26,564 nucleotides of DNA from Acidimicrobiales bacterium. Its GTDB lineage: Bacteria > Actinomycetota > Acidimicrobiia > Acidimicrobiales > Acidimicrobilacustridaceae. Below the pieces are notes generated by a model. The model saw only the letters and a program-made list of their open reading frames with translations, had not been told where the DNA came from and searched no databases. The position numbers and the translations under genes were made by a program. The stretch is from contig JBBQHT010000026.1 in NCBI GenBank assembly GCA_038324235.1, forward strand, positions 1 to 26,564, given 5' to 3'. Within the stretch, counting starts at the first letter, position 1. Each line of letters begins with the position of its first letter. This document shows, piece by piece, positions 5,117 to 24,495 of the stretch.

Positions 5117-5182
5117 GTCCAGTTCCTTCGTCTCGAGTAGAAGTTCTCTTCCGCACTACAGGTGGGGTGAACGACCGGTGGG

Positions 5183-5966: not shown

Positions 5967-6036
5967 GCGCCCCTCCGTTGCTATGGGTGAGTGGCCGACC
6001 GTAGCAGAGCACCAGCAGCGAGGATCCTCTCGGAAA

Positions 6037-8594: not shown

Positions 8595-9755
8595 TTAGCC
8601 GGTGAACGCTGGTGCCGTCTTCACCGCGACCGCGGGTGCGCTGGGCTGAACGGAAGTCGGGGGCGCCGTCGTCGGGGTCACCGTGACCGGGACCGTGGTC
8701 GTCGGCGCCGCGGTCGTCGTGGTGGTCGGGACCGGGGTGAGGTCGAGGCGGCCGATCCGGTTGGACTCGGTGAACCAGATGGCCCCGTCGGGGCCCGCCA
8801 CGGGTGTGGTCGGTTCGCTGTCCGCGTTCGGGAGCGGGTAGACGGTGAGGGTTCCCGTCACGGTCAGGCGGGCGATGGTGTTGCCCACCTGGGCCACCAC
8901 CCAGAGGTTGCCGTCAGGACCGGTGGTGATGCCCTCGAGCACGTCTCCTGCCGCAGCGACGTCGAACTGGTCGGTCAGCACCCCAGATGTCGTCATGCGC
9001 CCGACGTGTTGGCTGGCGCTGAGCGTGGTCCACAGCGCGCCATCAGGTCCGGTGGTGATGTCGAACGGGCCCGAACCGGCGGTGACCGGGAACTCGATCA
9101 AGGTGGCGAGCGGGTCGGGGGTGGCCGGGGCGAAGCGGCCGATGTGGTCGGAGTCCTGTTCGGTGAACCACAGCAGGCCGTCGGGGCCCGCGGTGATGTC
9201 GGTGGGGAAGTTGTCCGCGGTCGGCAGCGGGTACTCGGTGATCGATGCGCCCGGATCGGCGGCCGCGGGATCGATGCGGCCGATCTGGTTGCCGGTGGAC
9301 TCGACGAACCAGAGCGCGCCGTCCGACGCGCTGGTGATGCCGAGCGGGTAGCCGTCCGGGGACGGGATGTCGAACAGGTCGATGGCGCCGGCGGGGGTGG
9401 CCCGGCCGATCTTGTCGCCGAAGGCGTCGTAGGTGAACCAGAGGTTCCCGTCCGCGCCGACCGTGATGCTGTGCGGCTGGCCGCTGCCGGTGATGGGGAA
9501 GGTCGACACCGCGCCCGCGGTGGTGATGCGGCCGATGCGGTTGGCACCCAGCTCCGTGAACCACATGGCCCCGTCCGGACCGACGACGATGTCCGATGCC
9601 CGCACGTCGCCGACGCCGAGGTCGTACTCGGTGATGGCCCCGAAGGCGCCGACCGGCGCCACGGTGGCGCCCGCGATGACGAGGATCGCAGTCAGCGCCG
9701 CCGTCGACACCGCCACTGCTCGTCGGCGAACTGTGCGGGTCTGGTGGTGGCGCAT
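8595..9755 (-). CDS. Second secreted Vgb-like beta-propeller repeat protein, a paralog of 7246..8442. It has a Thr/Pro-rich C-terminal region ending in ...TAPAFTG.
   Basis: The probable start is MRHHQTRTVRRRAVAVSTAALTAILVIAGATVAPVGAFG, a signal peptide, at the ATG at 9755. A GGGAG lies 4 nt upstream. Repeats follow the pattern ITEY.LP....P..IT.GPDG.LWFTE....IGR. The tail is TTTTAAPTTTVPVTVTPTTAPPTSVQPSAPAVAVKTAPAFTG, then the stop. Confidence 0.7.
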   Translation of the reverse strand: MRHHQTRTVRRRAVAVSTAALTAILVIAGATVAPVGAFGAITEYDLGVGDVRASDIVVGPDGAMWFTELGANRIGRITTAGAVSTFPITGSGQPHSITVGADGNLWFTYDAFGDKIGRATPAGAIDLFDIPSPDGYPLGITSASDGALWFVESTGNQIGRIDPAAADPGASITEYPLPTADNFPTDITAGPDGLLWFTEQDSDHIGRFAPATPDPLATLIEFPVTAGSGPFDITTGPDGALWTTLSASQHVGRMTTSGVLTDQFDVAAAGDVLEGITTGPDGNLWVVAQVGNTIARLTVTGTLTVYPLPNADSEPTTPVAGPDGAIWFTESNRIGRLDLTPVPTTTTTAAPTTTVPVTVTPTTAPPTSVQPSAPAVAVKTAPAFTG

Positions 9756-9820
9756 GGGACTCCCGGACATCGATGGAGTGTCAGCCTGCGCCCCGTCGAC
9801 CAAAGCTGCATGAGTAAGAC

Positions 9821-11347
9821 CTACTCATTTTTGGAGACCACTGGTTCGCGCGCGTCAGGTGCTCGGCCCGAGCCGCCCTGCGCGGGGGCGCCGAACCAGC
9901 GCTCGATCGCTCGAGGCAACGTCGCATCGGCGATGTCGCCGACCCAGGCGACGTGCCCGTCTGGTCGGATGAGGACGGCAGGCGGTGCGGTGATCTCGCC
10001 GACGACGGGGAGCTCCCAGACGCCGACGTAACTCGCGTCCACGAACCGGACTCGACCGGCCCACGGCGTGACGTCGAACCCGTCGGACCCCGAGAGGTCG
10101 AGGAGCACCGGGCGGGCGTCGTGCAGGAAGGCGAACATGCGCGTCGGACCGTCGGCTGTCCGCAGGTCGAGATCGGGCATGCGCCGGCCGAGCAGGGGAT
10201 GGTGTCCATCCGCCTCGTAGCAGATGTCGAGCCCGGAAATCGTCCCGGCGATGCACCGCCGGGGCCCGTCCATGGCCAGCAGCTCGGTCACGGTCGCATG
10301 CAGCGCGCGATGGCGGTCGTCGGGAGTGATGAGCGCGGTCTGCGCCATGGTGTTCTCCTGCACGCGGGCGCCCACCGGATGCCGCTCGGCGTGGTAGGTG
10401 TCGAGCAGGCTCTCGGGCGAGGCGCCGTCGACGACCTGGGCCAACTTCCATCCCAGGTTCACCGCGTCCTGCACCCCGACGTTGAGCCCTTGACCACCGA
10501 GGGGGGCGTGAACGTGCGCCGAGTCGCCCGCCAGCAGCACCCGGCCGCGGCGGTACGACTCGGCCTGACGCGTCGTGTCGTTGAACCGCGAGATCCAGGC
10601 GGGACTGTGGGCACCGAAGTCCGATCCGTACGCCGCGACGAGCGCGGCACAGAGGTCCGCCATCGTGGGTTCGGTGGGGTGATCGATCTGCCGTTCCTTC
10701 ACCACGACCCCGTACGGGCCTCCGCCGCCGGGGTTGACGGGACCGATGCCACCGCCCTCGGGCCGGATCCCGAGGGGCGGGTCCTCGGTCATCGCGACCT
10801 CGGCGATCACGAAGCTGCTTGATGGGTCGGTTCCCGGGAAGTCGATGCCCGCGGTCTTGCGGATCAGGCTGCGCCCGCCGTCGCAGCCGACGAGGTACCG
10901 CGCTCGCAGCACCGAGTCGTCGGACAACATGACGTCGACACCGCCATCGTCCTCGATGAAGCCCACCACCTCGCACGCGCGGATGGTCGGGACCCCGAGC
11001 TCTTCGATCCACGCGGCCAGGATGCACTCGAACTCGCGCTGGGAGAGCGCGAGCAGGTAGTTGTGGCGGGTCGGGAAGTCACTGATGTCCAGCGGGATGT
11101 ACGCGTAGCCCACACCGGGGTACGGCTGTCCCTCGGCGAGGAACCGCTCGGCCACCCCCCGCTGGTCGAGCACCTCGATGGTGCGCGAGTGCAGGCCACG
11201 AGAGCGTGGGCTGTCCAGCTCCTGGGTGGCGCGCCGTTCGACGATCACGACGTCCACTCCGGCCAACGCCAGCTCGGCCGCCAACATCATCCCGGTCGGC
11301 CCCCCTCCGGCGATGACCACGGCGGGCTGGATCAGCGGCGCATCCAT
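9821..11347 (-). CDS. Class A FAD-dependent monooxygenase (PHBH-fold aromatic hydroxylase, Rox/RdmE/PgaE-like) with a C-terminal thioredoxin-like domain.
   Basis: Three hallmark motifs are present: the GxGxxG Rossmann (VVIAGGGPTGMMLAAELALAGVDVVIVER), the DG motif (RYLVGCDGGRSLIRK), and the GD/FAD motif (RVLLAGDSAHVHAPLGGQGLNVGVQDAVNLGWKLA). It also carries LLDTYHAERHPV and a C-terminal ...LIRPDGHVAWVGD...LPRAIERWFG that is typical of rifampin-monooxygenase-like enzymes as I recall them. GAGGAG lies 7 nt upstream of the ATG at 11347. Confidence 0.8.
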   Translation of the reverse strand: MDAPLIQPAVVIAGGGPTGMMLAAELALAGVDVVIVERRATQELDSPRSRGLHSRTIEVLDQRGVAERFLAEGQPYPGVGYAYIPLDISDFPTRHNYLLALSQREFECILAAWIEELGVPTIRACEVVGFIEDDGGVDVMLSDDSVLRARYLVGCDGGRSLIRKTAGIDFPGTDPSSSFVIAEVAMTEDPPLGIRPEGGGIGPVNPGGGGPYGVVVKERQIDHPTEPTMADLCAALVAAYGSDFGAHSPAWISRFNDTTRQAESYRRGRVLLAGDSAHVHAPLGGQGLNVGVQDAVNLGWKLAQVVDGASPESLLDTYHAERHPVGARVQENTMAQTALITPDDRHRALHATVTELLAMDGPRRCIAGTISGLDICYEADGHHPLLGRRMPDLDLRTADGPTRMFAFLHDARPVLLDLSGSDGFDVTPWAGRVRFVDASYVGVWELPVVGEITAPPAVLIRPDGHVAWVGDIADATLPRAIERWFGAPAQGGSGRAPDAREPVVSKNE

Positions 11348-11579
11348 GCGACAACTCCTCGGCTCGTGTCCCGGGCCGGGATCGGCGCGGCAAACGAGTC
11401 ATCATCAGCACGGTCCGCTCGTTTGCGGCAAGCCCCCTCCCCCACGTTACGATTCGTACGGCGGCGGGGGGCCGAGGGGCCGACGGGCCCAGGACGATGG
11501 GCGCGCAGGAGCGCCAGCGGAGCCCGCGGCAGCTCACCGTGGGCCGCGCCGAACGCCCGGCTGTCGCTCCCTCAGCTCA

Positions 11580-11933
11580 TCAGCCCTGGCCCAACCGACC
11601 GAGGTGGTTGTCAATCACCGAGGTGTCCCGGATGACCGAGGTGCCGCTGACGGCGATCACGCCGCCAAAGATCACGGACGTGCCCGAGGTGCCGATCGTT
11701 TGTGCGTAGGTCGCTTTCACCGGCCCGTTCTTGCCGACCTGGGCGAAGCCTTCGACTTCGGAGCCGGCGAGGGCCTCTTCGATCTCAGCCACGGTGTCGG
11801 GACGCAGTCCGGCGTCGATCAGCGTGTTGTGCGGGTCGGCGATCAGCGCATCGCGTAGTCCTGGTTCCGCTTCGAGTCGGGCGATGAGGGCATCGGCGTC
11901 GGCTTGGGCTTCGGCTTCGGTGTACACGGTCAT
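11580..11933 (-). CDS. Small protein (117 aa) with an NHLP/Nif11-like leader domain and a Cys-free, Ser/Thr/Gly/Val/Ile-rich repetitive C-terminal region. It is a candidate RiPP precursor peptide.
   Basis: AGGAGG lies 5 nt upstream of the ATG at 11933. The N-terminal half reads EAQADADALIARLEAEPGLRDALIADPHNTLIDAGLRPDTVAEIEEAL. This resembles NHLP/Nif11 leader consensus as I remember it (..LIAKaw.Dp.f...LLaDPkaaLaeaGi.lPegv...). The C-terminal half reads ...ATYAQTIGTSGTSVIFGGVIAVSGTSVIRDTSVIDNHLGRLGQG, with three TSVI motifs (two of them GTSVI), an internal GG, no Cys, and two Arg. The DNA carries the matching direct repeats (ACCGAGGTG three to four times at 11597..11690 on the + strand). It is divergently oriented to the tridomain synthetase 113 bp away. 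Confidence 0.5.
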   Translation of the reverse strand: MTVYTEAEAQADADALIARLEAEPGLRDALIADPHNTLIDAGLRPDTVAEIEEALAGSEVEGFAQVGKNGPVKATYAQTIGTSGTSVIFGGVIAVSGTSVIRDTSVIDNHLGRLGQG

Positions 11934-12046: not shown

Positions 12047-14983
12047 GTGGCACCAGCGACTGATCGATCTGAGGGCGAGACCAGCGAGGAAGACAAAGTG
12101 CGAGCCCGGGTTCGCGCTCGCTGTGATCGCGACGGTGACCGGCAGTGGGCGGTGCACGTCGATCCGTCGGACACCTGGGTCCACGCCCAACCGCTGGACA
12201 CGCGTCTACCGACGCAGGGGTGGAAGCTGCACATGTCAGCGGGGCTGTCGTCGGCCGACGAGGTGCTCCGCAAGGCGCTCGACGTGCTGGTGGACGCGGG
12301 GGTGAGCTTCAAGGTCGCCCGCTCGCGAGCTGTGCTCGACGCCTTGAACTGGGGCTTCGCCGGAGGCAGCCAGATCGGCAAGTTCATGACCGTCTATCCC
12401 GTGGACGACGCGCAGGCGGTGAAGGTCGCCGCGGCGCTGCACGAGGCCACCATCGGCGAACGGGGTCCGCGCATCCCTTCGGACCGGCCCCTCGTTGCCG
12501 GATCGGTCGTGCACTACCGCTACGGATCCTTCGCCACGCGCTACCTGCGTCTCGCGACGGGCGAGGTGGTGCCCGCGATAGAGGACCCCGACGGCGCGCT
12601 GGTCCCCGACGAGCGGCGGATCGCACCACCGAGCTGGGTGGATGACCCGTTCATCCGCGCCGGCGCAGGGGCCCGCGCGCCCGCCGACCCCCAACGATCC
12701 GCGATCGGCGGCCGCTTCGTGTTGACCGGCACGATGCTCCAGACCGCCCGCGGGTCGGTGTTCCTCGCCGTCGACCTCGACGGCCCCCGCCGCTGCATCG
12801 TGAAGCACGCCCGCCGCGACTCGCTGCTCAACGCGCGCGGAGCCGACGCGCGCGACCGGCTGCGAGCGGAAGCCGCGACCCTCGAGCGCCTCGGCGCGGA
12901 TGGTCCCTGGCCGCAACTGCTGGCGCTCGTGGACGACGGCGACGACGTCTACCTCGCGGAGGACGAGGTCCGCGGCACCACGCTGGCGCAGCTCATCACG
13001 ACCCGCATCGCCGCCGGTCGCCACCTCGACCCTGCGGTGATCGTGCGCTGGGGCGTGGCCATCGCCGAAGCACTCGATCGGATCCACGGCCGCGGCCTGA
13101 TCGTCCGCGACCTGAAGGCGGCGAACATCATGGTGGCGCCCGCCTCCCCTGCTGACGACGTCGAAGACTCGGACCGGGCGGAGCAGCCCGGCGGCCCGGA
13201 CCGCACGGACCGCACGGACGGCGAGCGCGAGGTGTGGCTGATCGATCTGGAGTGTGCCGACGCCGGCGCGTCCACGGCCGACGGCACGCTCGGTACCCGC
13301 GGCAGCTGCTCACCTGCGCAACGTCGGGGCGACGCGCCCACGATCGCGGACGACATCTTCTCGCTGGGCGCGCTGCTCTGGTTCATGGCCACCGGCGCAG
13401 ACCCGGCCGCGGCGCCCGACGCCACCGCGCTCGGCGATCGTCAGCTCGGGTGGCTTCGCCCGGAGCTCGGTGAACCGTTGGTCCAGGTGATCACCACGTG
13501 CCTCGCCGACGATCCGCACCACCGGTACCGGGACACAACCGAGGTGGCACGGGCACTGGCCACGACACGCGATCTCGCCGAGCGCCCCTCAGCCCTCCCG
13601 ACCTCGACCGCGCCATCGGCGCCGCGGGTGGGGACAGCCGCGCCCACCAGCCCGACCTCACGAGTCGGCGAGCGCGACCCCGACCTCCACGCTCACCGCG
13701 CGACGGCCGACGCGCCGTCGACGGCGGTGTGGGCGCGCGCCGCCCGGGACATCGGTGCGGTGCTCGTGGAACGGGCCGACCGCCGCGGCGATGATCGGGT
13801 GTCCTGGCAACCGGCATCCGGCGCGCCGCTCACCGATCTCGCCGGTGGCGACGCGGGGGTGGTGCTCGCCCTGAGCGCGTTGGCTCGTGTGTTCCCCGAC
13901 GCCGTCCCCGGTCTCGACGAGGTCATCCACGCGGGCGCTCGCGGACTGCTGCGCGCCCCCGGCTACGGCGGCGACCCCTCCCCTGCGCTCTTCAGTGGCG
14001 AGAACGGGGTCGCGCTCGCGATCCTCGCCGCCGGCACCGTCCTCGCCGAGGCCTCGCTCATCGACGCGGCCGCGGCCTGCGCCGAGACCGCGCGACGGCG
14101 TGCTCACGGTGGCTTCGATCTGCTCGACGGATCTGCCGGTCGCGCGCGCTCGATGCTGTGGTGGCACCAGGCGACGGGTGATCCACGGTGGCTCGACGGG
14201 GCCTGCGTCGCCGGCGAGCACCTCGTCGCGCACGCCCGACCGATGACCCTGGAGGGCGGTCGCGGGTCGGGCCGGTACTGGACGGCCGGTCCGCCCGATC
14301 GCCAGGTCGAGCCCCGCCTGCAGCCGGGGTACGCCGGCGGCGCGGCCGGCATCGCCGACTGCCTGCTGCAGCTCTACGCCGCGACCGGCGACCAGATCTT
14401 CTGCGCGACGGCGTGCGCGGCGCTTCGCGCGGTCGTGGCGGCGGCGGTGCCGGCCCTCGACGGTGATCACGGCATCACCTGGCCCATCGCGGCCGGCGAG
14501 CCAGAGGTGCGGATCGCATGGTGCCACGGCACGACGGGCGTGGCCACGACGCTGCTGCGCGTGCGCGAGCTCGGCCTCGAGACGGGCGCCGCGACCGAGC
14601 TCGATCTGGCCGCCCTTCTGCCCGATGCCATCGATCCCGCGATCGGCCGCGACCTCGACGGGCTGATCACCGCGGCGGCGACCACAGTCGCCGCGGGCAC
14701 GCGGGCCGCGAGCTCCAGCCAGCGCGACGGACTCGCCGGGTCGCTGGAGCTGCTGGTGGACCTGTCGGGCTCCTACCACACCGCCGCCGACCGCGTCGCG
14801 CCGGCGGTCGCCGATCTCGCCGACCTCCTGCTGGCGTTCGTACCGAGCCCCGATCATCCCGATCGGATCGCGCCGGCCTCCGGCTACCTCGACGGGCTGA
14901 GCGGGGTGCTCGCCGTCGCCCTCCGCCTCGCCGCGCCGGCGACGCCGGGTCTGCTGGGGCCGCAGTGGTGGTTCGCCAGCTGA
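12047..14983 (+). CDS. Tridomain class III/IV lanthipeptide-synthetase-like enzyme (LanKC/LanL-type). It has an N-terminal pSer/pThr-lyase-like domain, a central Ser/Thr protein kinase domain, and a C-terminal LanC-like domain.
   Basis: The N-terminus has QGWKLHMSAG...GKFMTVYP, the lyase-domain signature seen in RamC, LabKC and VenL-type enzymes as I recall. The kinase block includes the VAIK-like RCIVKHARRD, the catalytic loop LIVRDLKAANIMV, LIDLECAD, and DIFSLGALLW. The C-terminal LanC-like block has LFSGENGVALAIL, GFDLLDGSAGRARSMLWWHQ, GYAGGAAGIADCLLQLY and IAWCHGTTGVATTLL. The canonical zinc-ligand triad (Cys...Cys-His-Gly) is only partly present: there is no second CHG motif and the GxAHG His is replaced. 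The GTG at 12047 is the first in-frame start. An alternative GTG at 12098 is preceded by GAGGAAG 5 nt upstream. Confidence 0.7.
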   Translation: MAPATDRSEGETSEEDKVRARVRARCDRDGDRQWAVHVDPSDTWVHAQPLDTRLPTQGWKLHMSAGLSSADEVLRKALDVLVDAGVSFKVARSRAVLDALNWGFAGGSQIGKFMTVYPVDDAQAVKVAAALHEATIGERGPRIPSDRPLVAGSVVHYRYGSFATRYLRLATGEVVPAIEDPDGALVPDERRIAPPSWVDDPFIRAGAGARAPADPQRSAIGGRFVLTGTMLQTARGSVFLAVDLDGPRRCIVKHARRDSLLNARGADARDRLRAEAATLERLGADGPWPQLLALVDDGDDVYLAEDEVRGTTLAQLITTRIAAGRHLDPAVIVRWGVAIAEALDRIHGRGLIVRDLKAANIMVAPASPADDVEDSDRAEQPGGPDRTDRTDGEREVWLIDLECADAGASTADGTLGTRGSCSPAQRRGDAPTIADDIFSLGALLWFMATGADPAAAPDATALGDRQLGWLRPELGEPLVQVITTCLADDPHHRYRDTTEVARALATTRDLAERPSALPTSTAPSAPRVGTAAPTSPTSRVGERDPDLHAHRATADAPSTAVWARAARDIGAVLVERADRRGDDRVSWQPASGAPLTDLAGGDAGVVLALSALARVFPDAVPGLDEVIHAGARGLLRAPGYGGDPSPALFSGENGVALAILAAGTVLAEASLIDAAAACAETARRRAHGGFDLLDGSAGRARSMLWWHQATGDPRWLDGACVAGEHLVAHARPMTLEGGRGSGRYWTAGPPDRQVEPRLQPGYAGGAAGIADCLLQLYAATGDQIFCATACAALRAVVAAAVPALDGDHGITWPIAAGEPEVRIAWCHGTTGVATTLLRVRELGLETGAATELDLAALLPDAIDPAIGRDLDGLITAAATTVAAGTRAASSSQRDGLAGSLELLVDLSGSYHTAADRVAPAVADLADLLLAFVPSPDHPDRIAPASGYLDGLSGVLAVALRLAAPATPGLLGPQWWFAS

Positions 14984-14990
14984 GAAAGAA

Positions 14991-15545
14991 TCAGCCTCGG
15001 GTCATGCCATCGATGGCGACGGTGATCGCCAGGATGAGCGCAGGATCCACACCCGGTTCGATCTCGACGCCATAGGTCTCACGCACCCGAAACCACTTCT
15101 TCGAGATCTCCGCGACCTTGTCGCCGTTGCGCTCGATCTCGTACTCGTGGTCAACGATGTTGCCGTGGGCCTTGAGGTCGTCGCCCCCGTCCACATCGAT
15201 CTTGAAGCGCTCCCGCACCCCGACGAGCGCCTTGTGCACCGTCGCACTCGAACCGTCGAGCTCGATCGCGATCCTGTCGCGGATGCTCAACTTCTTCTCG
15301 CGGATCAACGCCACCTGGTTGCCGTTCATGTCGTCGAGCTTCCACGTGTCGCGGATGCGCATGGCCTTGCCATCGACATGAAACGCCTTGGCCCCGCCTT
15401 CGTCCTCGATCCAGTAGTCGTCGCCGATCGACAGGAGGTCCTGGCGCATCTGGAAGCGCCGCTTCGGCGGGCCCTCGTTGCGGTGGAGCAGTCCCATGAG
15501 CGTCCTTCCGTCGAGCGGCCATTCCGCGTCCTCGTAGCGCTTCAC
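14991..15545 (-). CDS. LURP-one-related (LOR, DUF567; tubby C-terminal-like fold) protein.
   Basis: The protein reads ...RFQMRQDLLSIGDDYWIEDEGGAKAFHVDGKAMRIRDTWKLDDMNGNQVALIREKKLSIRDRIAIE...YEIERNGDKVAEISKKWFRVRETYGVEI, which is typical of the LOR family as I remember it. It starts at the GTG at 15545 with no clear SD. Its stop is only 7 nt from the convergent synthetase stop. Confidence 0.55.
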   Translation of the reverse strand: MKRYEDAEWPLDGRTLMGLLHRNEGPPKRRFQMRQDLLSIGDDYWIEDEGGAKAFHVDGKAMRIRDTWKLDDMNGNQVALIREKKLSIRDRIAIELDGSSATVHKALVGVRERFKIDVDGGDDLKAHGNIVDHEYEIERNGDKVAEISKKWFRVRETYGVEIEPGVDPALILAITVAIDGMTRG

Positions 15546-15639: not shown

Positions 15640-16371
15640 TCACTCCGCGCGTCGCCGGAACCCCTCGATGATCGCCCGGAGCTGGGCCCCGTTGGTGGCC
15701 ACGGCCGGTGCGTCAGGACCGACCTCCACCGCCTCGGTCCCCCACTCGGTGGCCGCCAGTTCGTCGAACACCGCCCGGGCGATGGCCTGCGCCCTGCTCT
15801 CGGCCTGCACGACCAGGCTGGTGCTCGTCGACGGCGTGCGGGCGATGCCGAGGTGCGGCCACCCGAGCGGCAGGTACACCACGTCACCGGGACGAGCGAC
15901 GCACTCCCAGTCCGGCTCGTGGATCGCCACGACGCCGGCCGACGCGTCCCCGAGCATCCGCCGCCGCCACTGCTGGGGCGGCACCCTCTCGGGTCGAGCG
16001 AGCCACCACTGCTTCACGCCGTCAAGGTGCACCACGAAGTTGTCGCTATCGTCCACGTGGGCCCCGATCGTGCCGAGCCCGGTGGTGCGGACCACGTCGA
16101 ACCAGACCGCGGGAGTACCGAACAGCGCTTCCGCGGCGGTGAGCGCCTCCGCCACCGCGGGGTCACGGATGCCTTCGAGGAACTGGACCTCGCCGTCCCG
16201 ACGGAGCACCGGCGAGTCGCCAGGCCCGGTAGCGGCAAGCACCCACGAATCGATCGTCGCCGAGGAGAGGCCACGCGGGAGCACGTGATCCACACCGCCT
16301 CGCAGCAGCACCGGGGACCGGCGCCAGTGCTGAGCGAAGAACGCGTTGTCGAGGAGGTCGGTCAGGGACAT
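15640..16371 (-). CDS. Cupin-4/JmjC-domain Fe(II)/2-oxoglutarate-dependent oxygenase (ribosomal-oxygenase-like hydroxylase).
   Basis: It reads MSLTDLLDNAFFAQHWRRSPVLLRGG (cupin_4 N-terminus), then GAHVDDSDNFVVHLDGVKQWWL (the HxD facial triad plus the double-stranded beta-helix core), then ...VVYLPLGWPHLGIA (the distal His). The ATG at 16371 was chosen over the ORF-track start at 16527, because 16527 would overlap the strongly supported GNAT start at 16506. Confidence 0.6.
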   Translation of the reverse strand: MSLTDLLDNAFFAQHWRRSPVLLRGGVDHVLPRGLSSATIDSWVLAATGPGDSPVLRRDGEVQFLEGIRDPAVAEALTAAEALFGTPAVWFDVVRTTGLGTIGAHVDDSDNFVVHLDGVKQWWLARPERVPPQQWRRRMLGDASAGVVAIHEPDWECVARPGDVVYLPLGWPHLGIARTPSTSTSLVVQAESRAQAIARAVFDELAATEWGTEAVEVGPDAPAVATNGAQLRAIIEGFRRRAE

Positions 16372-16505
16372 CGGATCGAGGTCGGCGGATTCGGTAACCG
16401 TTTCGGATCGAGAGCGTCCGGTAACATACCAGCCAACCAGCTCCGGTCTCCGCCTTCCGTCGCCTCCGTGGCCGGTTCGGGGCCGGCCGATAACCAGGAG
16501 GTCCC

Positions 16506-17276
16506 ATGGGCCGTGTCCTCGGGTCAACTGTCAATGCCGGCATGAACGCAGCCACCGGCTTCGGGGGCGTCGGCCCCCGCCGGTTCGGTACGCAGTTCGT
16601 TACCCCCCGCGGGATGGGCGGGCCCGGCCTTGCCGCGCAGCCCTTCGGTGGCGCGGACGTGCTCGGGTTCGAAGCAGCGCTGGTGAGCGAGGCGGTGCTG
16701 ACCGGCCGGAACATCGTGCTGCGTCCGCTGAACACAGGTGACCGTGACCACTACTGCGACACCGTCGAGCGCAACCGGCCGCGGCTCGATGCCAGCGGAA
16801 CCGGTCCGGCGCACGAGCAGACCGCCCCCGCCACGCGCGGCGCGTACGACGAGCTCATCGAGCACTACGACCTCCTCCGCTTGCTCGATCAGGGCCATTG
16901 GTTTGCGCTCGTCGACGGCGACGAGGTCATCGGTGAGATCGGGCTCGAGGGCGTGGTGCGCGGCCAGGTGCAATCGGCGTTCCTCGTGCTCTGGGTCGAC
17001 GAGGCCCACGCGGGCCGGTCCCTCGCGCCGGAGGCGTACGTGCTGCTCGCTCGACATGCGTTCGAGGACCTGGGCCTGCACCGCGTGGAGGCCGCCGTGC
17101 TCACCGACAACGAGGCCGTCAGGCGGGCGTTGGCGAAGCTCGACATCCGCAGCGAAGGAGTCTCACCGCGCTACCTGCTCGTCGAGGGCGAGTGGCAGGA
17201 CCACGAGCGCTTCATCCTCACCGCCGAGGAGTGGACGGAGCGACGCGAAGCGCTCATCGCCGAGTGGGTCGGCTGA
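16506..17276 (+). CDS. GNAT-family N-acetyltransferase (RimJ/RimL-like) with an unusual Gly-rich 50-aa N-terminal extension.
   Basis: AGGAGG lies 4 nt upstream of the ATG at 16506. The core reads LTGRNIVLRPLNTGDRDHY...WFALVDGDEVIGEIGLEGV...FLVLWVDEAHAGRSLAPEAYVLLARHAFEDLGLHRVEAAVLTDNEAVRRALAKL, typical of RimL-type GNATs. The N-terminal extension is MGRVLGSTVNAGMNAATGFGGVGPRRFGTQFVTPRGMGGPGLAAQPFGG. Confidence 0.7.
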   Translation: MGRVLGSTVNAGMNAATGFGGVGPRRFGTQFVTPRGMGGPGLAAQPFGGADVLGFEAALVSEAVLTGRNIVLRPLNTGDRDHYCDTVERNRPRLDASGTGPAHEQTAPATRGAYDELIEHYDLLRLLDQGHWFALVDGDEVIGEIGLEGVVRGQVQSAFLVLWVDEAHAGRSLAPEAYVLLARHAFEDLGLHRVEAAVLTDNEAVRRALAKLDIRSEGVSPRYLLVEGEWQDHERFILTAEEWTERREALIAEWVG

Positions 17277-18538
17277 TCCAGCGGCACCTGCTCGTCCTGC
17301 ATCCGCACCTCGTCCCCCACCCCGCCGGCGGCCTGCTCGTCGACAGCACCACCGGCGCCCGGATCACGCTACCGGCCTCGCTGTTGGCGCTCGCGTCCGC
17401 CTTCGTCACACCCGCGGACCCGGAACGGGTCCTCGCGGCTCGGGCGACCGGCGCCGACCACAGCGATGGCCGCTCGCAGCTCGCCGGGCTCCTCCGGCGC
17501 GGACTGCTCGTGTCTGCGTTTCGCCTGCCGCCGCCGCGCATGGGGCTGTTCGACGCGCCGCGCACGACGCTCGCCCAGGCGTTGGCCAGCCCTGGACCGA
17601 TGGTGGTCGTGTGCGCGATGCCCTACGACGCCGGCACGAGCGGTCGACCCGGCACGCGCGACGCCCCGCAGGCCATCCGCGAGGCCAGCACCGACCTGTA
17701 CTGCCACGATCCGCTCGTCCGCGCCGGATGGTGTGATCCCGTCCTCGACCGTGTGATCCTCGAGGGCGTCGGGCTCGCCGATGTCGGCGACCTCGCGCCG
17801 GTCCTTGCGGCGCGCAACGGTCCGTCGTTCGACGCACTGGCGGGCAACGTCGAGCTGATCATCGCGGGCGGGGCGTTCCCCGTCGTGCTCGGCGGGGACC
17901 ATTCCCTCGCCCTCGCCGCCATCCGGGGGGCCGCCCGAGCTCGACCGGGCATCGGCGTGCTGCACCTCGACGCACATGCCGACGTCGATGTCGGCATCGT
18001 GTTCGGCGGCGAGTCCGGGTCCGGGTCGACCCGCGAGCCAACCGCGGACGCATCCGGCGCAAGCGGCGCACCCGACGAAATCAGCGCTGACGATGGTCGA
18101 TCGGACGACTGGTGGCGCACGGTGCTCCACCACGGCAACGTCATGACGTTCGTGGCGGCCGAGCCCAACGTGGCGTCGCTCGTGCAGGTCGGCATGCGTC
18201 AGCGCTCGCCGGTGCCGGTGCCCGTGCCCGCAGGGACCCGACGCCTCCCCGGCGTCGTGGGCGTGGTGGACGTGCTCGCGGCCATGGACCCGAACCTCGA
18301 CTGGTACGTCTCGCTCGATGTCGACGTGCTCGACCCTTCGGCGCTCCGCGGTACCGGCACACCCCTGCCCGGCGGCTTCACCGCACGCGAGCTGGCCGAC
18401 CTGCTCGCCGGTGTCATCGCCGCCCGCACCGTGATCGGCCTCGACGTCTGCGAACTCATCCCGGATCACCCATCCGAGGTGGCGCTCGTCGCCGACCTCA
18501 TCCTCCAGATCCTGGCCGCCGCCCTTCCTCGACACTGA
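17264..18538 (+). CDS. Fusion protein: an N-terminal PqqD-like RiPP recognition element (RRE) followed by an arginase/agmatinase-family (ureohydrolase) domain with a complete binuclear-Mn ligand set. It is a candidate peptide arginase.
   Basis: The arginase motifs are all present: VLGGDHSLALAAI (GGDHS), VLHLDAHADVDVG (DAHxD), and YVSLDVDVLDPSAL (SxDxDxxDP). The N-terminus is ...MVVVCAMPYDAGTSGRPGTRDAPQAIREAS. About 100 aa precede the core: HPHLVPHPAGGLLVDSTTGARITLPASLLALASAFVTPADPERVLAARATGADHSDGRSQLAGLLRRGLLV. This fits the PqqD pattern (..geallld..tg.il.LNetaa.iwelldg..t.eei...la.........a..dv..fl.eL...GLl). The frame has no ATG. Candidate GTG starts are at 17192, 17231 and 17264. The GTG at 17264 overlaps the GNAT stop (GTGGGTCGGCTGA), which implies translational coupling. 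Confidence 0.6.
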   Translation: MGRLIQRHLLVLHPHLVPHPAGGLLVDSTTGARITLPASLLALASAFVTPADPERVLAARATGADHSDGRSQLAGLLRRGLLVSAFRLPPPRMGLFDAPRTTLAQALASPGPMVVVCAMPYDAGTSGRPGTRDAPQAIREASTDLYCHDPLVRAGWCDPVLDRVILEGVGLADVGDLAPVLAARNGPSFDALAGNVELIIAGGAFPVVLGGDHSLALAAIRGAARARPGIGVLHLDAHADVDVGIVFGGESGSGSTREPTADASGASGAPDEISADDGRSDDWWRTVLHHGNVMTFVAAEPNVASLVQVGMRQRSPVPVPVPAGTRRLPGVVGVVDVLAAMDPNLDWYVSLDVDVLDPSALRGTGTPLPGGFTARELADLLAGVIAARTVIGLDVCELIPDHPSEVALVADLILQILAAALPRH

Positions 18539-18696: not shown

Positions 18697-19860
18697 TCAC
18701 ACCCGGTGGACGTACGCCTGACAGTACGGGCAGTTCGTCTCGGTGGCGCCAGGCGGGAGGGTCATGGTGGCACCACACGATGTGCACGGGATCTCCGCCG
18801 CGCCGACATCGAGCCGCCGGCCACACCCGTCGCAGACCACGATCGTCGCCCCCGACAACTTGTGCAGCTGCCCGCCGCATCCGCCACAACGGCGCGGCTC
18901 GCCCTGCTCCGGCACGATCGGGACGTAGACGTTGGTGAGCCCCGCCCACTCGATGAGCTGGTGGGCCGAGTCTTGCGGCAGAAACGCGATCCAGGCCTGG
19001 CAGAAGCTCGAGCAGGCCAGCTTCGTGTCGAGGTGCGCGGTCTGGTCGGGATTGAGGTCGTTGACACCGAGGTCCTGATTGAGCCGGTTCACCACCTCGA
19101 TCTGGCGCGACAGCGTCTCGCACATCGGCCAGAACGACGCCGGATCGACCGCCATCGGCATCATCGACGTGTAGCGCAGCCCGACGGCGCGCTGCTTCAT
19201 CTCCTCCGTGACCGCCACCGCCGCAGGCTCGAAGGCGGTGACCGCCGCCGCGGCGGCGAGGTAGTCGACCAATCGTTGCCGGTAGGTGAGATCGCCGCGA
19301 GCCCGGTGGGAGAACGAACCTGGGAAGCTGGAGACATACGCGTCGTAGCACCGGTGCTGCAGCGCGAGGTACCCGTCGCGGTCACCCGCGCCCTGCGCCG
19401 CTCGGAGCTGGGCCTGCATGTCGTTCACCCACATGGCGTAACCCAGGTCCGGGGTGGTGGTGCTCTCGCCGGCACGCCGCATGTCGAAGTCGACCAGGGA
19501 GCCGCAATAGTCGCAGTACACGTAGGCGGTGACCGACGCGAGCTTCTTCGGCGCGCCGCAGTTGGCACACGTGCACCGCTTGACGTACCCGGCGGCCGGT
19601 GGCTCGATGATCGCGAGCACGCGGTGAGCCCAGGTCGCGGCCAAGGCCATCGCGTCCACGTTCGCGCCGCCGGTCCCACGCATCGCACCCATGGCGGCAC
19701 GGGCGTGCGGATCGGCATACAACTGGTGGGCGAGGCGCAACCCGTCGAGCATCGACGGTGCCGCCGGCATCGGATGGCCCGCGGCGCTGGTCACCGGTTG
19801 CTTCTTGCGGAACAGCGCCACACGGACCTCCCGGCCGAGTCGAACGGTGACGAATCGCAT
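18697..19860 (-). CDS. Hypothetical protein with three zinc-ribbon motifs.
   Basis: The three ribbons are [11 protein letters not shown]...(15)...[16 protein letters not shown]...(14)...CDGCGRR, and CTSCGATMT...(13)...CPYCQAYV. The probable start is MRFVTVRL at 19860. The ORF-track start at 19980 would add a 40-aa Cys/His-rich extension that overlaps the gadB upstream region. The start is uncertain. Confidence 0.45.
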
Positions 19861-20042
19861 CGACTCTTGCACACGTGGCACGGGCGCACCTCGGCCGGCG
19901 TGCCCCGGTGCGTCCTGCCCGGATATACATTCGGTCGAATGGCACGCGCCACACGCTGTCCGGTGCGCACCGGCCCGCACGTCCGGCGCCAGCCCACGCT
20001 CGACATCGACCTCGCCCCCCTCCAGAACCGAAGGACCTCACC

Positions 20043-21443
20043 ATGACTCTGCACATCCGCGATGCGGTTCGGGATTCGTTGAACGACTCGGTCTTCGCCG
20101 GCCAGAACCTGAACTCGGCCGTCCCGAAGTATCGGTTCCCCGACACCGAGACGAATCCTGACCAGGCGTACCAGATCGTCGCGGACGAGCTCATGCTCGA
20201 CGGCAACTCGCGACAGAACCTGGCGACGTTCTGCCAGACATGGGAGGAGCCGCAGGTCCACAAGCTCATGGAGCTGGCGATCGACAAGAACATGATCGAT
20301 CGCGACGAGTACCCGCAGACCGCGGAGATCGAGCGTCGCGCCGCGCACATGATGGCGGACCTGTGGAACGCACCCGACGCCGCGAACACCGTGGGGTCGT
20401 CGGCGATCGGGTCATCCGAGGCGTGCATGATGGCCGGCATGGCCGCCAAGTGGCGGTGGCGGGCCAAGCGTGAGGCAGCCGGCCTGCCGACCGACCGGCC
20501 GAACATGGTGTGCGGCCCGGTGCAGGTGGTGTGGCACAAGTTCGCCCGGTACTGGGACATCGAGATCCGGGAAGTGCCCATGTCCCCCGGGCACTACGCC
20601 ATGGACGCCACCGACATGCTCGAACGCGTCGATGAGAACACCATCTTCGTCGTACCCACGCTCGGGGTGACCTACACCGGTGCGTTCGAGCTGGTGAAGC
20701 CCCTCGCCGACGCGCTCGATCAACTCCAGGAGAACACGGGCCTGGACATCGACATCCACGTGGACGGGGCCAGCGGCGGGTTCCTGGCCCCGTTCTGCGC
20801 GCCGGAACTCGAGTGGGACTTCCGGTTGCCGCGGGTGAAGTCGATCAGCGCGTCCGGCCACAAGTTCGGCCTGGCCCCGCTCGGCGTCGGTTGGGTCATC
20901 TGGCGCGACGTCGCCGAGTTACCCGACGACCTCATCTTCCACGTCAACTACCTCGGCGGCGACATGCCCGTCTTCCAGCTCAACTTCTCCCGGCCCGCCG
21001 GCCAGATCATCGCCCAGTACTACGACTTCCTGCGCCTCGGGAAGGAGGGCTATCGTCGCATCCACATGGCCTCCTACGAGACCGGCCAGTACCTCGCCGC
21101 GGCGGTACCGCGCCTCGGTCCGTTCGAGCTGCTCTGCGACAGCGACCCGCTCACGGGCATCCCGGCCGTCACATGGCGGATCAAGGAAGGCGAGGATCCC
21201 GGCTTCACGCTCTTCGACCTCGCCGATCGGCTGCGCATGAACGGCTGGCAGGTGCCCGCCTACACCCTGACCGGCGCGGCCGCGGACATCCCGGTCCAGC
21301 GGATCCTGGTACGCCAAGGCGTCAGCCGCGACCTGGCGTCGCTGCTCCTCGAAGACATGCGCGACGCGATCGCCCACTTCGCCAAGCACCCGGTCACCGT
21401 GTCGATGACCAAAGAGGAGTCCAGCGGCTACAGCCACCTCTGA
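20043..21443 (+). CDS. gadB: Glutamate decarboxylase (PLP-dependent).
   Basis: The protein reads [33 protein letters not shown]...[18 protein letters not shown]...[23 protein letters not shown]..., which is the GAD family signature including the PLP-Lys motif S-x-S-G-H-K-F. AAGGA lies about 8 nt upstream of the ATG at 20043. Confidence 0.85.
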
Positions 21444-21803: not shown

Positions 21804-22292
21804 TTACTCCTTGCCGTGCAGCGCCTCTTGGATCTCGGCTTCCTGCTCGGCGCTGAGCGAGGTCTTGATGACGGTGCCGCCGAACTTCGAGAGCTCGGCG
21901 AGCGCCCGATCGGTGGTCATCTGCTCGACGATCATGAACAGGGCCGAGGTCCCGGGCTGGATCTGCGCGCGCACCTGGTCCTGGAACTGCTTGTCGATCG
22001 TCGACTTGCCCAGCTTGCCGCCGAGAGCCCCGAACGCGGCGCCGAGGACCATGCCGAAGAACGGGACGAAGAACAAGATGCCGAACAGCAAGCCCCAGAA
22101 CATGCCCCACGTCGCACCCTGACCGACCACGTGCTGGTTGGTGACCGTGCGGAACTTGCCTTCCTCGTTGCGCACGATCGCCGCCAGGGCGTCGGGCTGG
22201 ATGATCAGATCGGCGGCCATGGCCTCGGCGGCGTCGAGCGCCGAGATCGCGGTCGTCGTGTCGTCATAACCGATGGCAATCAGATCAGGCAT
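21804..22292 (-). CDS. DUF1269-family membrane protein, a canonical member.
   Basis: It reads MPDLIAIGYDDTTTAISALDAAEAMAADLIIQPDALAAIVRNEEGKF...ATWGMFWGLLFGILFFVPFFGMVLGAAFGALGGKLGKSTIDKQFQDQVRAQIQPGTSALFMIVEQMTTDRALAELSKFGGTVIKTSLSAEQEAEIQEAL. This matches the DUF1269 architecture I recall: LIVITFDDE..., the Gly-zipper, ...LPAGSSALFLLV..., ...GGTVLKTSLSEEQE. The start is the internal ATG. The upstream 25 codons of the ORF track are unsupported. Confidence 0.75.
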   Translation of the reverse strand: MPDLIAIGYDDTTTAISALDAAEAMAADLIIQPDALAAIVRNEEGKFRTVTNQHVVGQGATWGMFWGLLFGILFFVPFFGMVLGAAFGALGGKLGKSTIDKQFQDQVRAQIQPGTSALFMIVEQMTTDRALAELSKFGGTVIKTSLSAEQEAEIQEALHGKE

Positions 22293-22668
22293 GGGTGAAA
22301 CTCCTCTAGTGTTTGTTGAATGATGTGTCGCCAATCGTAGGCCGCTCCGCCGAACACGCCGCCACATCTGAGGTCGTCAAGCGAGGCGAGCCCGTCAGGT
22401 CGACCGGCCGAACGCACCAGTTCCGGGGGACCGCCCGGGCACCAGAGCTCGTCGCTCAGCTCCCTGGGGGGATCGTGACATGACCCGGCTCGGCGGCCCG
22501 AGGCGCAGGACTCCCACCGGTCGTGGTCTTCCAGCGCGCAGCTGCCGCGGCGAAGCTCTTCGCAAGGCCCCACACAGAACCCTGTGCGAGCGCCAGATCA
22601 TGCTGTACCCTCTCACGATCCCCCATAGCCAAGGGGACTTTGCGTATCGACCAGCTGGGGGTTGCGTC

Positions 22669-24495
22669 ATGATGAAGGCGGGAAAGTTGTTGGGACGGAT
22701 CGGCATTGCCGCGGGCGTCTCGATCGCGATGATGGGCTTCGCCTTGTCGCTGCCAGCGAATGCCGAGTCCACGACGGTGACCTACACGGCGAACATCACC
22801 ATTCCGGTGCCGCCGGCCTCGAGCTTTGCCGGCAGCGCGGGCGGGGACGGCTGGGATCTGGCGATGACGCCGACCGCCGTCTACAACGTCTTCCACCACA
22901 ACAGCACGTCGCTCAACGTGGCCTGCCACATCCAAGTCGACGCCAGCAAGTGCTGGGATACCGACGCCAAGACGATCACCGACGCCGACGGCAACAACTT
23001 CACCGGGTCGAGCCACCCGGGGATCTACCTCGACCAGGCAACCGGGAAGCTGTACATCTACTCAACCCGAACGTCGGACAATACCGCCGGCGTGGTGTGC
23101 GTCGACACCAAGCAGCCCCCGGCGAGCCTCTTCTGCGGGTTCACACCCTTGAGCGCCGTCGGTGACGGCGGCATCACGAGCGTCCCGATGAAGGCTGGCT
23201 CGAACCTGTACTCGTTCAACTACGTGACCGGCGCAACGGCAGCCGGCGGCGCGGGTGGCACCGCCAACACGCTCCTGTGCTTCAGCCTGACGTCGTTCGC
23301 CCCTTGCGCCGCCCAGCCGTTCTCCGTCAACATCGGTGCGGGCACCTTCGCGACGAGCACGTTCCCCGTCCCCTTCGCCGCCGTCATCGCCGGAAAGATC
23401 CTCGTACCCACAGTCTTGAGCAATGGCGGTACGACCTACGTCATGGGCTGCTTCGATCCGAGCACCGGGGCGTCGTGCGCCGGTTCATGGCCGATCGCGG
23501 TGCCGTCAAGCTACATCGGGACCAACGGCTCGGCGTTCCCCCTGCTCAATGCTGCGGGCGTCATCACCGGCTTCTGCCTGCCGACCGGCACCGATGAGTG
23601 CTTCGACCTCGGCGGTGCGACGGTTGCGACACCAGCCGGCATGTCTGGGGTCATCGGCGGGAACTCGCAGTGGAACGGCCCGGCGGTGACCATCGGCGCA
23701 CGCGTCTACCTGCCCAACGGCAACGCGGGCCAGGTCGAGTGCTTCAGCTACGCGACGGGAGCTGGGTGCGCCAACTTCCCGAAGGTTCTGAGCAATGCGA
23801 CCTACATGTACACGGTGAACGCCGACCCGCAGCGGCCGGCGTGCATCTGGGTGAACTCCGACTCCGGCAGTGCGCAGATCCAGAACTTCGACGCGTTCAG
23901 CGGTGGGAGCTGCGGGCAAGGTGCTATACGTGTGCTGAGTTCGTCCTTCGTGGTGCCCACCGAAGTCTGTGCCCCCAGCAAGTGGCTCTCACTCGCCGTG
24001 AACGCCCCTCCGAGAGACCAGTACGCGTCGGGCACCGTCGACTTCCTGGACAGCGACGCCAACGCGATTCCCGGGGTGGCGAGCCAACCGATCGATGCAA
24101 ATGGCGCCGTGGACATGAGCACGCTGGCGCTGACCTCCACGCTGCCACAGTTCCTCATCACGCTGAACGGCCTCACGGGCAGCCTCGGGCAGGTCGAACT
24201 GACGCTGACCTGGCAGGCCACCTACGACCCGTCGTGCGTGAGTGCCGCAGTCGTCGCTGCGCCGCCGACCACCACCACGTCGACGACGTCCACGTCGACT
24301 AGCACCACGTCGACCACCACGATGGCCAGCGCTAGTCCGGAGTTCGCCACGGCGCCCACCACGGTGACCGGCACGTTGCCCGTCACGGGCAGCACGAGTG
24401 GCCCGCTCGCTGGGGGCGCACTTGCGCTGATCGCGGTCGGCGCCGGGCTGGTGCTCGTCTCCGTTCGATTCCGCAGATGGGAAGCTCGCGGCTGA
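22669..24495 (+). CDS. Secreted, LPXTG-anchored cell-surface protein. It has a large Cys-rich domain (at least 20 Cys) and a Thr/Ser-rich stalk.
   Basis: The start MMKAGKLLGRIGIAAGVSIAMMGFALSLPANAEST is a signal peptide. The C-terminus is ...PPTTTTSTTSTSTSTTSTTTMASASPEFATAPTTVTGTLPVTGSTSGPLAGGALALIAVGAGLVLVSVRFRRWEARG. It carries LPVTG, a hydrophobic helix and the basic tail RFRR, which is a classic sortase substrate. The Cys-rich ectodomain is of unknown family. Confidence 0.65.
   Translation: MMKAGKLLGRIGIAAGVSIAMMGFALSLPANAESTTVTYTANITIPVPPASSFAGSAGGDGWDLAMTPTAVYNVFHHNSTSLNVACHIQVDASKCWDTDAKTITDADGNNFTGSSHPGIYLDQATGKLYIYSTRTSDNTAGVVCVDTKQPPASLFCGFTPLSAVGDGGITSVPMKAGSNLYSFNYVTGATAAGGAGGTANTLLCFSLTSFAPCAAQPFSVNIGAGTFATSTFPVPFAAVIAGKILVPTVLSNGGTTYVMGCFDPSTGASCAGSWPIAVPSSYIGTNGSAFPLLNAAGVITGFCLPTGTDECFDLGGATVATPAGMSGVIGGNSQWNGPAVTIGARVYLPNGNAGQVECFSYATGAGCANFPKVLSNATYMYTVNADPQRPACIWVNSDSGSAQIQNFDAFSGGSCGQGAIRVLSSSFVVPTEVCAPSKWLSLAVNAPPRDQYASGTVDFLDSDANAIPGVASQPIDANGAVDMSTLALTSTLPQFLITLNGLTGSLGQVELTLTWQATYDPSCVSAAVVAAPPTTTTSTTSTSTSTTSTTTMASASPEFATAPTTVTGTLPVTGSTSGPLAGGALALIAVGAGLVLVSVRFRRWEARG

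Follow-up and report, generated by a model that had tools for sequence, protein, structure and literature searches.

A candidate peptide arginase fused to an RRE-like domain in a three-gene cassette of an Acidimicrobiales bacterium

The DNA analyzed here is the 26.6 kb contig JBBQHT010000026.1 of an Acidimicrobiales bacterium (26,564 nucleotides, about 70% GC; hereafter, the window), in which coding genes were called by analysis of the GC content at third codon positions (GC3). It contains a gene for an arginase-family enzyme that carries, at its N-terminus, a domain resembling the RiPP recognition elements (RREs; RiPPs are peptides that are ribosomally synthesized and then modified post-translationally). 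Most likely, this RRE-arginase represents a kind of enzyme not yet described, one converting arginine to ornithine inside a peptide. In the reading that we favor with moderate confidence, it forms, together with a JmjC-type oxygenase and a GNAT acetyltransferase encoded next to it, a single peptide-tailoring cassette in which the RRE-guided conversion of peptidyl arginine to ornithine would be complemented by hydroxylation by the JmjC enzyme and acetylation by the GNAT. The domain architecture, the intact metal site, the RRE fold, the linkage of the genes, and the conserved arginine in the precursors of related clusters were all computed, as detailed below. The elements of the cassette in the window are the following.

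15640-16371, minus strand: gene for a JmjC_2 (cupin) Fe(II)/2-oxoglutarate oxygenase (PF08007), divergent from the GNAT gene
16372-16505, no strand: intergenic region of 134 nt between the divergent JmjC and GNAT genes, presumably promoter-bearing
16506-16700, plus strand: N-terminal extension of the GNAT, about 65 aa, Gly/Pro-rich (AGGAGG ribosome-binding site, GC3 of 0.83, conservation)
16701-17276, plus strand: GNAT core, Acetyltransf_3, RimJ-like (PF13302, E 2.4e-15), with the TGA stop codon at 17274-17276
17264-18538, plus strand: RRE-arginase fusion gene, 424 aa, identical to the deposited protein P0001 (GTG start, PF00491)
17291-17518, plus strand: RRE/PqqD-like domain, aa 10-85 (predicted fold, profile)
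17600-18523, plus strand: ureohydrolase (arginase/agmatinase-fold) catalytic domain, aa 113-420 (PF00491, Foldseek)
17990-18109, plus strand: low-complexity loop between the DAHAD and HHGN motifs, lineage-specific and predicted to be disordered (GC3 of 0.78)

The RRE-like domain comprises the N-terminal 85-95 aa of the arginase protein. Scans of this region of the window protein and of nine homologues against Pfam and NCBIfam returned nothing significant: the window domain had no Pfam match, PqqD (PF05402) included, even at E<=1, and one of the homologue domains (P0008) reached an E of 0.19 for PqqD. Because the sequence models came back empty, searches by fold and by profile were needed. All structural evidence reported here is predicted, from shallow alignments of 10-11 sequences. 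AlphaFold2 yielded a compact domain at aa 10-85 with pLDDT >90, whether the full-length protein or only the domain was modeled, with strands at residues 10-12, 16-18, 24-27, and 33-35 and helices at 38-45, 53-60, and 66-78; the predicted model displays the winged-helix topology of RREs, that is, a three-stranded antiparallel sheet followed by three helices. When this model was compared with solved structures, the best neighbors were almost all RiPP leader-binding domains (TigE, MccB, MibB, LynD, NisB, TbiB1, and PqqD), with TbiB1 complexed with its leader peptide as the top Foldseek match and generic winged-helix DNA-binding proteins ranking lower. The domain has the same predicted fold and topology as PqqD, TbiB1, TfuB1, and the RREs of NisB, MibB, LynD, MccB, and TigE, but differs from them in a sequence that falls under the Pfam PqqD thresholds and in its fusion partner, a ureohydrolase. 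We also considered the N-terminal region of guanidine hydrolase as the same domain and rejected this possibility: neither 7esr nor 9fek is among the structural matches of the window domain.

A profile built from the domains of ten family members was used for a hidden Markov model search of 1.84 billion representative proteins (E<=1e-3) and retrieved 81 hits. The short stand-alone hits are mostly PqqD proteins as defined by Pfam (23 of the 38; PF05402, best E 7e-25), and 29 of the 41 long hits carry an arginase domain, which identifies the RRE-arginase fusion as a real, recurrent architecture. By predicted structure and profile similarity, the N-terminal domain is of the RRE/PqqD-type fold. An earlier note on this DNA, made from the sequence alone, had proposed a PqqD/RRE domain of roughly 90 aa at this place and suggested structure prediction against PqqD/RRE structures as a check; the proposal is supported by the predicted fold, with RiPP leader-binding domains dominating the matches, and by the profile, although not by Pfam. 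A few repeat-rich hits of the same search (P0110, P0160) are probably low-complexity false positives, and three of the 41 long hits contain a methyltransferase domain, that is, a PqqD-like domain fused to an S-adenosylmethionine (SAM) methyltransferase.

The fusion is rare, with some tens of clusters at 50% identity, and a word-indexed search gave about ten full-length relatives. A scan of the GTDB genomes with a single protein found no relative; with an alignment as the query, the fusion turned up in six GTDB genomes, but never in a locus of the cassette type. No NCBIfam model for the RRE-arginase fusion was found, and a search of the open-access literature found no description of it.

The arginase ORF matches PF00491 with 150 bits (cutoff 22), in two stretches divided by an insertion. 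The motifs GGDHS (aa 210-214, nt 17891-17905), DAHAD (aa 236-240, nt 17969-17983), and SLDVDVLDP (aa 350-358, nt 18311-18337) are all present, and the six metal ligands (H213, D236, H238, D240, D352, and D354) are invariant in an alignment of 11 family members, in agreement with the earlier claim that every metal-ligand motif is kept. Two additional invariant motifs, HHGN (nt 18128-18139) and TGTPLPGG (nt 18353-18376), are specific to the RRE-arginase family. The AlphaFold2 model adopts the three-layer alpha/beta/alpha fold (pTM 0.84) and, in Foldseek searches, matches E. coli agmatinase (E 1.5e-18, target-normalized TM 0.77), as well as guanidinase and proclavaminate amidinohydrolase. Agmatinase is also the best NCBIfam match of the protein; the scores are below the respective cutoffs for agmatinase (TIGR01230; 121 vs 174.3 bits), arginase (TIGR01229; 77 vs 227.6), and HutG (61 vs 229), and, by this measure, the enzyme is not an agmatinase equivalog. 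It shares the fold and the metal ligands with SpeB, GdmH (7esr), a Nitrospira guanidinase (9fek), and proclavaminate amidinohydrolase (1gq6), at E of 1e-26 to 4e-22, but differs from these small-molecule ureohydrolases in sequence (23-27% identity in structural alignments), in the presence of HHGN, TGTPLPGG, and the RRE, and in the genomic context, which for the window family is RiPP-like and not that of polyamine metabolism.

The insertion in the catalytic domain, GESGSGSTREPTADASGASGAPDEISADDGRSDD, spans aa 249-282 (nt 18008-18109) and is absent from all aligned homologues (P0002-P0011); as the earlier note had remarked, it is a long low-complexity segment between arginase motifs, and it is unique to the window protein. 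A test for tandem repeats showed that it is not a tandem repeat. It is predicted to be disordered, with pLDDT <50 for aa 243-280 in the AlphaFold2 model, and it presumably sits where arginases have the substrate-specificity loop.

The arginase frame contains three candidate GTG start codons, at 17192, 17231, and 17264. In the third-position GC frame plot, the GNAT frame gives way to the arginase frame at about 17230-17290, and the deposited protein P0001 (424 aa, 100% identical) begins at GTG 17264, with which both the frame plot and the alignment of homologues concur; the longer version starting at GTG 17192 disagrees with both and was rejected. The start at 17264 overlaps the TGA of the GNAT gene (17274-17276) by 13 nt, as anticipated in the earlier note, which had placed a GTG start of the arginase over the GNAT stop. 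In the closest relatives, the GNAT and arginase genes share a TTGA start/stop overlap; the equivalent position in the window (17273-17276) reads CTGA, and the usable start apparently moved 9 nt upstream, to GTG 17264. In other relatives, the arginase overlaps whichever gene precedes it, with ATGA or GTGA. The recurrence of these overlaps (TTGA, ATGA, and GTGA) among the relatives indicates that coupled translation is a habit of the family.

The GNAT gene (16506-17276) starts with an ATG 5 nt downstream of an AGGAGG and encodes a protein that matches PF13302 (57.9 bits vs a cutoff of 25.4, aa 70-213) and also PF00583. It is closest to RimJ-like acetyltransferases, but its score with the RimJ model NF008072 of NCBIfam (56.7 bits) is under the cutoff of 190, and it carries an extension of about 65 aa compared with RimJ-like relatives of about 197 aa that start with 'L.GRRVVLRPL'. 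The earlier note had described a Gly-rich extension behind a strong AGGAGG; both are present, although the extension is about 65 aa long and not 50. Every close relative shows the same pattern, with MGRAL(G) at the start, a variable Gly/Pro-rich middle, and DVxGFEAxT at the end. The extension is kept in four relatives known to come from cassette loci and also in P0201, and is absent from the RimJ-like relatives; it may be a docking peptide or a cis-encoded substrate of the RRE. The motif [DE]-V-x-G-[FQ] is common to the GNAT extension, the leaders of the type B precursors described below, and the family of a 117-aa peptide encoded elsewhere in the window, at E of 0.02-0.3, which is not significant.

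The gene that is conserved with the arginase most consistently is the divergent JmjC gene, which the earlier note missed. The protein matches PF08007 (49.9 bits vs a cutoff of 22), and an NCBIfam scan matched no model. The JmjC_2 family includes the ribosomal-protein arginine hydroxylase YcfD, and the window oxygenase resembles YcfD/RoxA in belonging to this Pfam family but differs in being part of a three-gene cassette with a ureohydrolase. The gene probably starts at ATG 16371, given that GC3 is 0.89 within the gene and 0.65 upstream of 16371 and that the alignment with the L010 homologue begins at 16371. A start at TTG 16527 was ruled out, since the gene would then run into the GNAT start and since the stretch upstream of 16371 has a low GC3. 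The window JmjC and its type B counterpart are 33% identical over the whole domain (E 3e-30), and the HxD...H iron triad of the window protein ('GAHVDDSD' and 'WPHLG') aligns with that of the type B homologue. This homology makes the arginase and the JmjC enzyme an evolutionarily linked pair. The JmjC gene was detected in L009, L010, L094, L004, L012, L016, and L097, and it accompanies the arginase in all four type B loci with enough flank and in all four cassette loci.

The relatives of the RRE-arginase fall into three types of neighborhoods (A, B, and C), the first two of which were found in these loci:

Type A: L001 (7498-16509), L013, L014, L017, L018, L002, and L098
Type B: L004 (1-11251), L012, L016, and L097

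Type A clusters come from Thermoactinospora rubra, Catenulispora rubra, Kitasatospora sp., Lysinibacillus sphaericus, and metagenomes. In them, the gene of a 45-61 aa precursor is followed by LysA/ornithine-decarboxylase-like genes (one or two), the gene of the RRE-arginase, that of a conserved protein of 480-526 aa without a Pfam match, and genes of small proteins (one of them weakly similar to 2-oxoglutarate oxygenases), a GNAT, and transporters; a stand-alone PqqD is also present in some loci. The precursors share the pattern ...DL..L.GSRP.. with an invariant Arg, and the cluster family is apparently undescribed. The precursors end in ...DL..L.GSRPxxN or, in Lysinibacillus, in GSRPRGDLQQF, and type A spans both Actinomycetota and Bacillota.

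Type B clusters, from Streptacidiphilus sp. and metagenomes, encode a precursor that matches the NCBIfam 'aroma-sacti' model NF045560 (E 1e-17) and has the C-terminus GQD(V/F)NI(F/V)R(F/IG); a search of the open-access literature on 'aroma-sacti' found no description. The endings observed are NIFRF, NIFRIG, and NIVRIG, with the Arg invariant. Besides the arginase and the JmjC enzyme, these clusters encode a B12-binding radical SAM enzyme, an MFS transporter, and three further proteins: a kinase/cyclase-like one, an S8 protease, and a GAF protein. At least one type B locus has a GNAT. Some type B arginases lack the RRE, namely P0007 (L012, 10001-10945, 314 aa) and probably the one in L097; their sequences begin at a GLFG motif that is conserved, and their genes overlap with the MFS gene upstream. 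In these two clusters, the RRE would, given its absence from the arginase, be either dispensable or supplied in trans.

Type C is the cassette itself, represented by four loci (the window, L009, L010, and L094), three of them on contigs of <7 kb. The only genes that these loci have in common are the divergent JmjC, the extended GNAT, and the RRE-arginase; the flanks are unrelated, with LURP-one in the window, DUF2804 in L009, and GGDEF-EAL in L094, and a secreted lipase-like gene lies downstream in L009 and L010. A tblastx comparison of L009 and L010 with the window found no conserved small ORF beyond the three cassette genes, and a metagenome scan with a cassette-specific alignment found no further cassette locus with long flanks. 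RiPP-type adjacency, that is, a precursor gene with a target residue in the core, is seen in the type A and type B relatives and not in the window or the other three cassette loci. The claim of the earlier note that the substrate is a peptide rather than free arginine is favored by the RiPP-like clusters of the relatives and their precursors with an invariant Arg.

Both tailoring steps that we propose downstream of the arginase have precedents. In biphenomycin biosynthesis, the peptide arginase BipC/PbsE turns the Arg of an FRF motif into Orn, which is hydroxylated by the JmjC enzyme BipG or the cupin PbsQ, and the aromatic residues that flank it are cross-linked by a B12 radical SAM enzyme (PMC12707348, PMC12257519). 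In selidamide biosynthesis, a peptide arginase is paired with a GNAT that acylates Orn (PMC12703449, PMC8784127). On account of these precedents, we propose RRE-guided conversion of Arg to Orn that would be followed by hydroxylation and acetylation; we infer each chemical step, the order of the steps, and the substrate. The GNAT and the arginase would be produced from one transcript by coupled translation. The arginase, acting as a binuclear-metal ureohydrolase, would be recruited to a ribosomal peptide by its own RRE, to which a recognition stretch of that peptide would presumably attach as an additional beta-strand; the enzyme would then hydrolyze the guanidino group of a peptidyl arginine, yielding peptidyl ornithine and urea. 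The JmjC oxygenase would hydroxylate the ornithine side chain, and the RimJ-like GNAT would acetylate a free amine, either the new delta-amine of Orn or an N-terminus. Candidates for the substrate are the GNAT's own extension, some peptide from another place in the genome, and, with the least support, the peptide encoded at 11580-11933. Because the cassette moves without a precursor gene, nothing peptide-like other than the extension is found with the RRE in every case.

The OspR/BipC/PbsE-type peptide arginases of the landornamide, biphenomycin, and related pathways belong to PF12640 (UPF0489) (PMC12703449, PMC10028609, PMC12707348, PMC12257519). The reaction proposed for the window enzyme is the same (peptidyl-Arg to peptidyl-Orn plus urea), as is the binuclear metal, and the OspR-type enzymes, too, are partnered with a JmjC or a GNAT. 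However, the window protein matches only PF00491, the last two motifs being replaced by GGDHS and SLDVDVLDP, and has a fused RRE, whereas the OspR-type enzymes recruit the substrate by a dimer cleft or a TPR domain; a search for the defining motifs of the OspR family showed that they are missing, and, on this evidence, the window enzyme is not a member of that family. Type B clusters have the same ingredients as the biphenomycin clusters, including the FRF/FRI C-terminus, but their arginase is a non-orthologous PF00491 protein, and the flanks examined did not show an MNIO gene. The enteropeptin enzyme KgrD is described as an Mn-dependent arginase of PF00491 that acts on a RiPP, where it turns a peptidyl Arg into Orn, which shows that members of PF00491 can work on peptides (PMC12703449). 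By the same description, it resembles the window enzyme in belonging to PF00491 but requires a thiomorpholine-modified substrate and comes from a sactipeptide-like cluster of Enterococcus; no fused RRE is reported in that account. The window enzyme probably works like OspR, BipC, and KgrD. The proposed reaction type and the domains are known ones, and what appears new is their combination and the cassette without a precursor.

The genes around the cassette are the following.

About 12098-14983, plus strand: LanL/LanKC-like synthetase (third-position GC, Pfam)
14991-15545, minus strand: LURP-one-related gene (third-position GC, Pfam)
18697-19980, minus strand: zinc-ribbon protein (third-position GC)
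Within 19851-21443, plus strand: pyridoxal phosphate (PLP) decarboxylase (PF00282)

The minus-strand ORF at 11580-11933 is a genuine gene that encodes a 117-aa peptide, and its divergent pairing with the large synthetase-like gene is conserved. The peptide family consists of about ten homologues that share the leader end LAG(S/T)EV(E/D)GF and have a core in which GTSV(I) motifs recur and Cys is missing; a core free of Cys is odd next to a lanthionine-synthetase-like enzyme. The synthetase scores under both the class III and the class IV cutoffs of NCBIfam, and the partner of the homologous peptide in L093 is a 946-aa protein without a Pfam match. Directly downstream of the peptide gene, on the same strand, lie genes for a FAD-dependent aromatic-ring hydroxylase (9821-11398) and a beta-propeller of the virginiamycin B lyase family (8595-9824), which may be further tailoring or resistance genes of this unit; in L093, different genes are found directly downstream of the homologous peptide. 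On the other side of the cassette, the zinc-ribbon protein (427 aa) has CxxC zinc ribbons at its C-terminus and no other recognized domain. The stop-to-stop ORFs of this protein (18697-20037, minus strand) and of the PF00282 protein (19851-21443, plus strand) are divergent and overlap by almost 190 nt, and therefore at least one annotated start must lie further in. Farther away, three scattered minus-strand genes (4535-5155, 5550-6092, and 21804-22376) match the DUF1269 profile, one of them scoring stronger as DUF6325, and the plus-strand ORF at 22372-24495 (707 aa) has zero Pfam matches. A sigma-70 consensus scan of the JmjC/GNAT spacer (16372-16505) found no promoter, and the promoter and terminator scans were uninformative.

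Several observations weigh against a peptide-tailoring role of the cassette. The window N-terminal domain lacks a significant Pfam match to PqqD; the 38-residue disordered insertion next to the DAHAD metal motif could impair the enzyme; and the acetylation step is the least secure because the three cluster types have GNATs that are not orthologous and share no more than the fold. Furthermore, none of the four cassette loci, with their three genes in common, has an adjacent precursor gene, the closest sequences of solved structure (7esr, 9fek, agmatinase, and proclavaminate amidinohydrolase) act on small molecules, and the two diaminopimelate/ornithine-decarboxylase-like enzymes of type A clusters would fit small-molecule guanidino/amine metabolism. 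The last three points are what a small-molecule ureohydrolase would account for: such an enzyme would hydrolyze a guanidino compound in free form, be it agmatine, a guanidino acid, an intermediate of a biosynthetic pathway as with proclavaminate amidinohydrolase, or guanidine itself, the GNAT would acetylate the resulting amine, and the N-terminal domain would serve in oligomerization or regulation and not in peptide capture. The best matches by sequence and structure (guanidine hydrolase, guanidinase, agmatinase, and proclavaminate amidinohydrolase), the best NCBIfam match, agmatinase, and the PLP decarboxylase (PF00282) 1.3 kb downstream in the window are in line with this scenario. We nevertheless consider it unlikely. 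The RRE fold and the profile links to PqqD speak against it, and the N-terminal parts of guanidine hydrolase and guanidinase do not appear among the structural matches of the domain; the protein scores under every small-molecule equivalog cutoff, and the PLP decarboxylase is not kept in L009, L010, and L094. The relatives, which range from Actinomycetota to Bacillota, directly adjoin short genes for precursors whose Arg is invariant, and they do so in two cluster types that are unrelated.

Two other possibilities retain peptide recognition by the RRE and differ in the peptide. The RRE might bind the GNAT extension, either as a tether of a GNAT-arginase complex and a built-in 'leader' that assembles the three enzymes on an unlinked peptide or protein, or as the substrate itself, with the invariant Arg3 of MGRAL converted to Orn and then hydroxylated or acetylated. 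The extension looks like a precursor in length (60-75 aa) and composition, with conserved ends (MGRAL and DVxGFEAxT) and a variable middle, and its occurrence in the four cassette-locus GNATs and P0201 but not in the RimJ-like relatives, the translational coupling, which would favor complex formation, and the movement of the cassette as a unit between unrelated flanks would all be compatible with such a self-contained system. However, the pattern comes from five sequences, the extension shows no significant profile similarity to the type A or type B precursors (hhalign E of 0.06-0.3), and we know of no RiPP-type substrate that is fused to its own tailoring enzyme as the extension would be; both versions of this idea, the tether or 'leader' and the substrate, appear to us improbable. 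The other possibility, put forward in the earlier note, is that the RRE-arginase acts on the 117-aa NHLP-like peptide at 11580-11933 beside the LanL/LanKC-like synthetase. That peptide is encoded by a real gene, which has a GC3 of 0.80 and an AGGAGG as ribosome-binding site and is separated from the arginase gene by 5.3 kb; the peptide resembles NHLP weakly (E 0.035), has two core Arg in the window copy, and ends its leader with EVEGF, which resembles EVEGQ of type B (hhalign E of 0.018, treated as not significant). But the core Arg is not conserved across the peptide family, and the peptide is not conserved together with the cassette: its homologue in L093, on a 427-kb contig, keeps the divergent large neighbor and has no JmjC, GNAT, or arginase within 10 kb, and the other cassette loci have DUF2804 or GGDEF-EAL on the synthetase side. 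In the window, moreover, two minus-strand genes intervene, one of them the unrelated LURP-one. By these comparisons, the peptide belongs to the LanL-like unit and not to the cassette, and we regard it as a very unlikely substrate.

Under the favored peptide-tailoring reading, the finding would extend a chemistry of recent discovery: the conversion of Arg to Orn in ribosomal peptides has been described only lately and is being put to use in the engineering of GLP-1 analogues and of antibiotics that contain ornithine (PMC12703449). The characterized peptide arginases are nearly all from PF12640, with KgrD as the sole PF00491 example. If our reading is correct, the window encodes a new peptide arginase that is probably leader-dependent and would therefore be programmable, and the family would provide markers for at least two uncharacterized families of RiPP clusters, with 'GSRP' and with 'aroma-sacti' precursors, in culturable strains. 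The cassette would also test whether an RRE works without a dedicated precursor gene; should the RRE recognize the GNAT extension, this would be a new use of an RRE, and the RRE-fused PF00491 enzymes would add to the peptide arginases a third family, one that evolved independently. The recurrent pairing of arginase and JmjC suggests that the formation of hydroxy-ornithine is more widespread than the biphenomycins.

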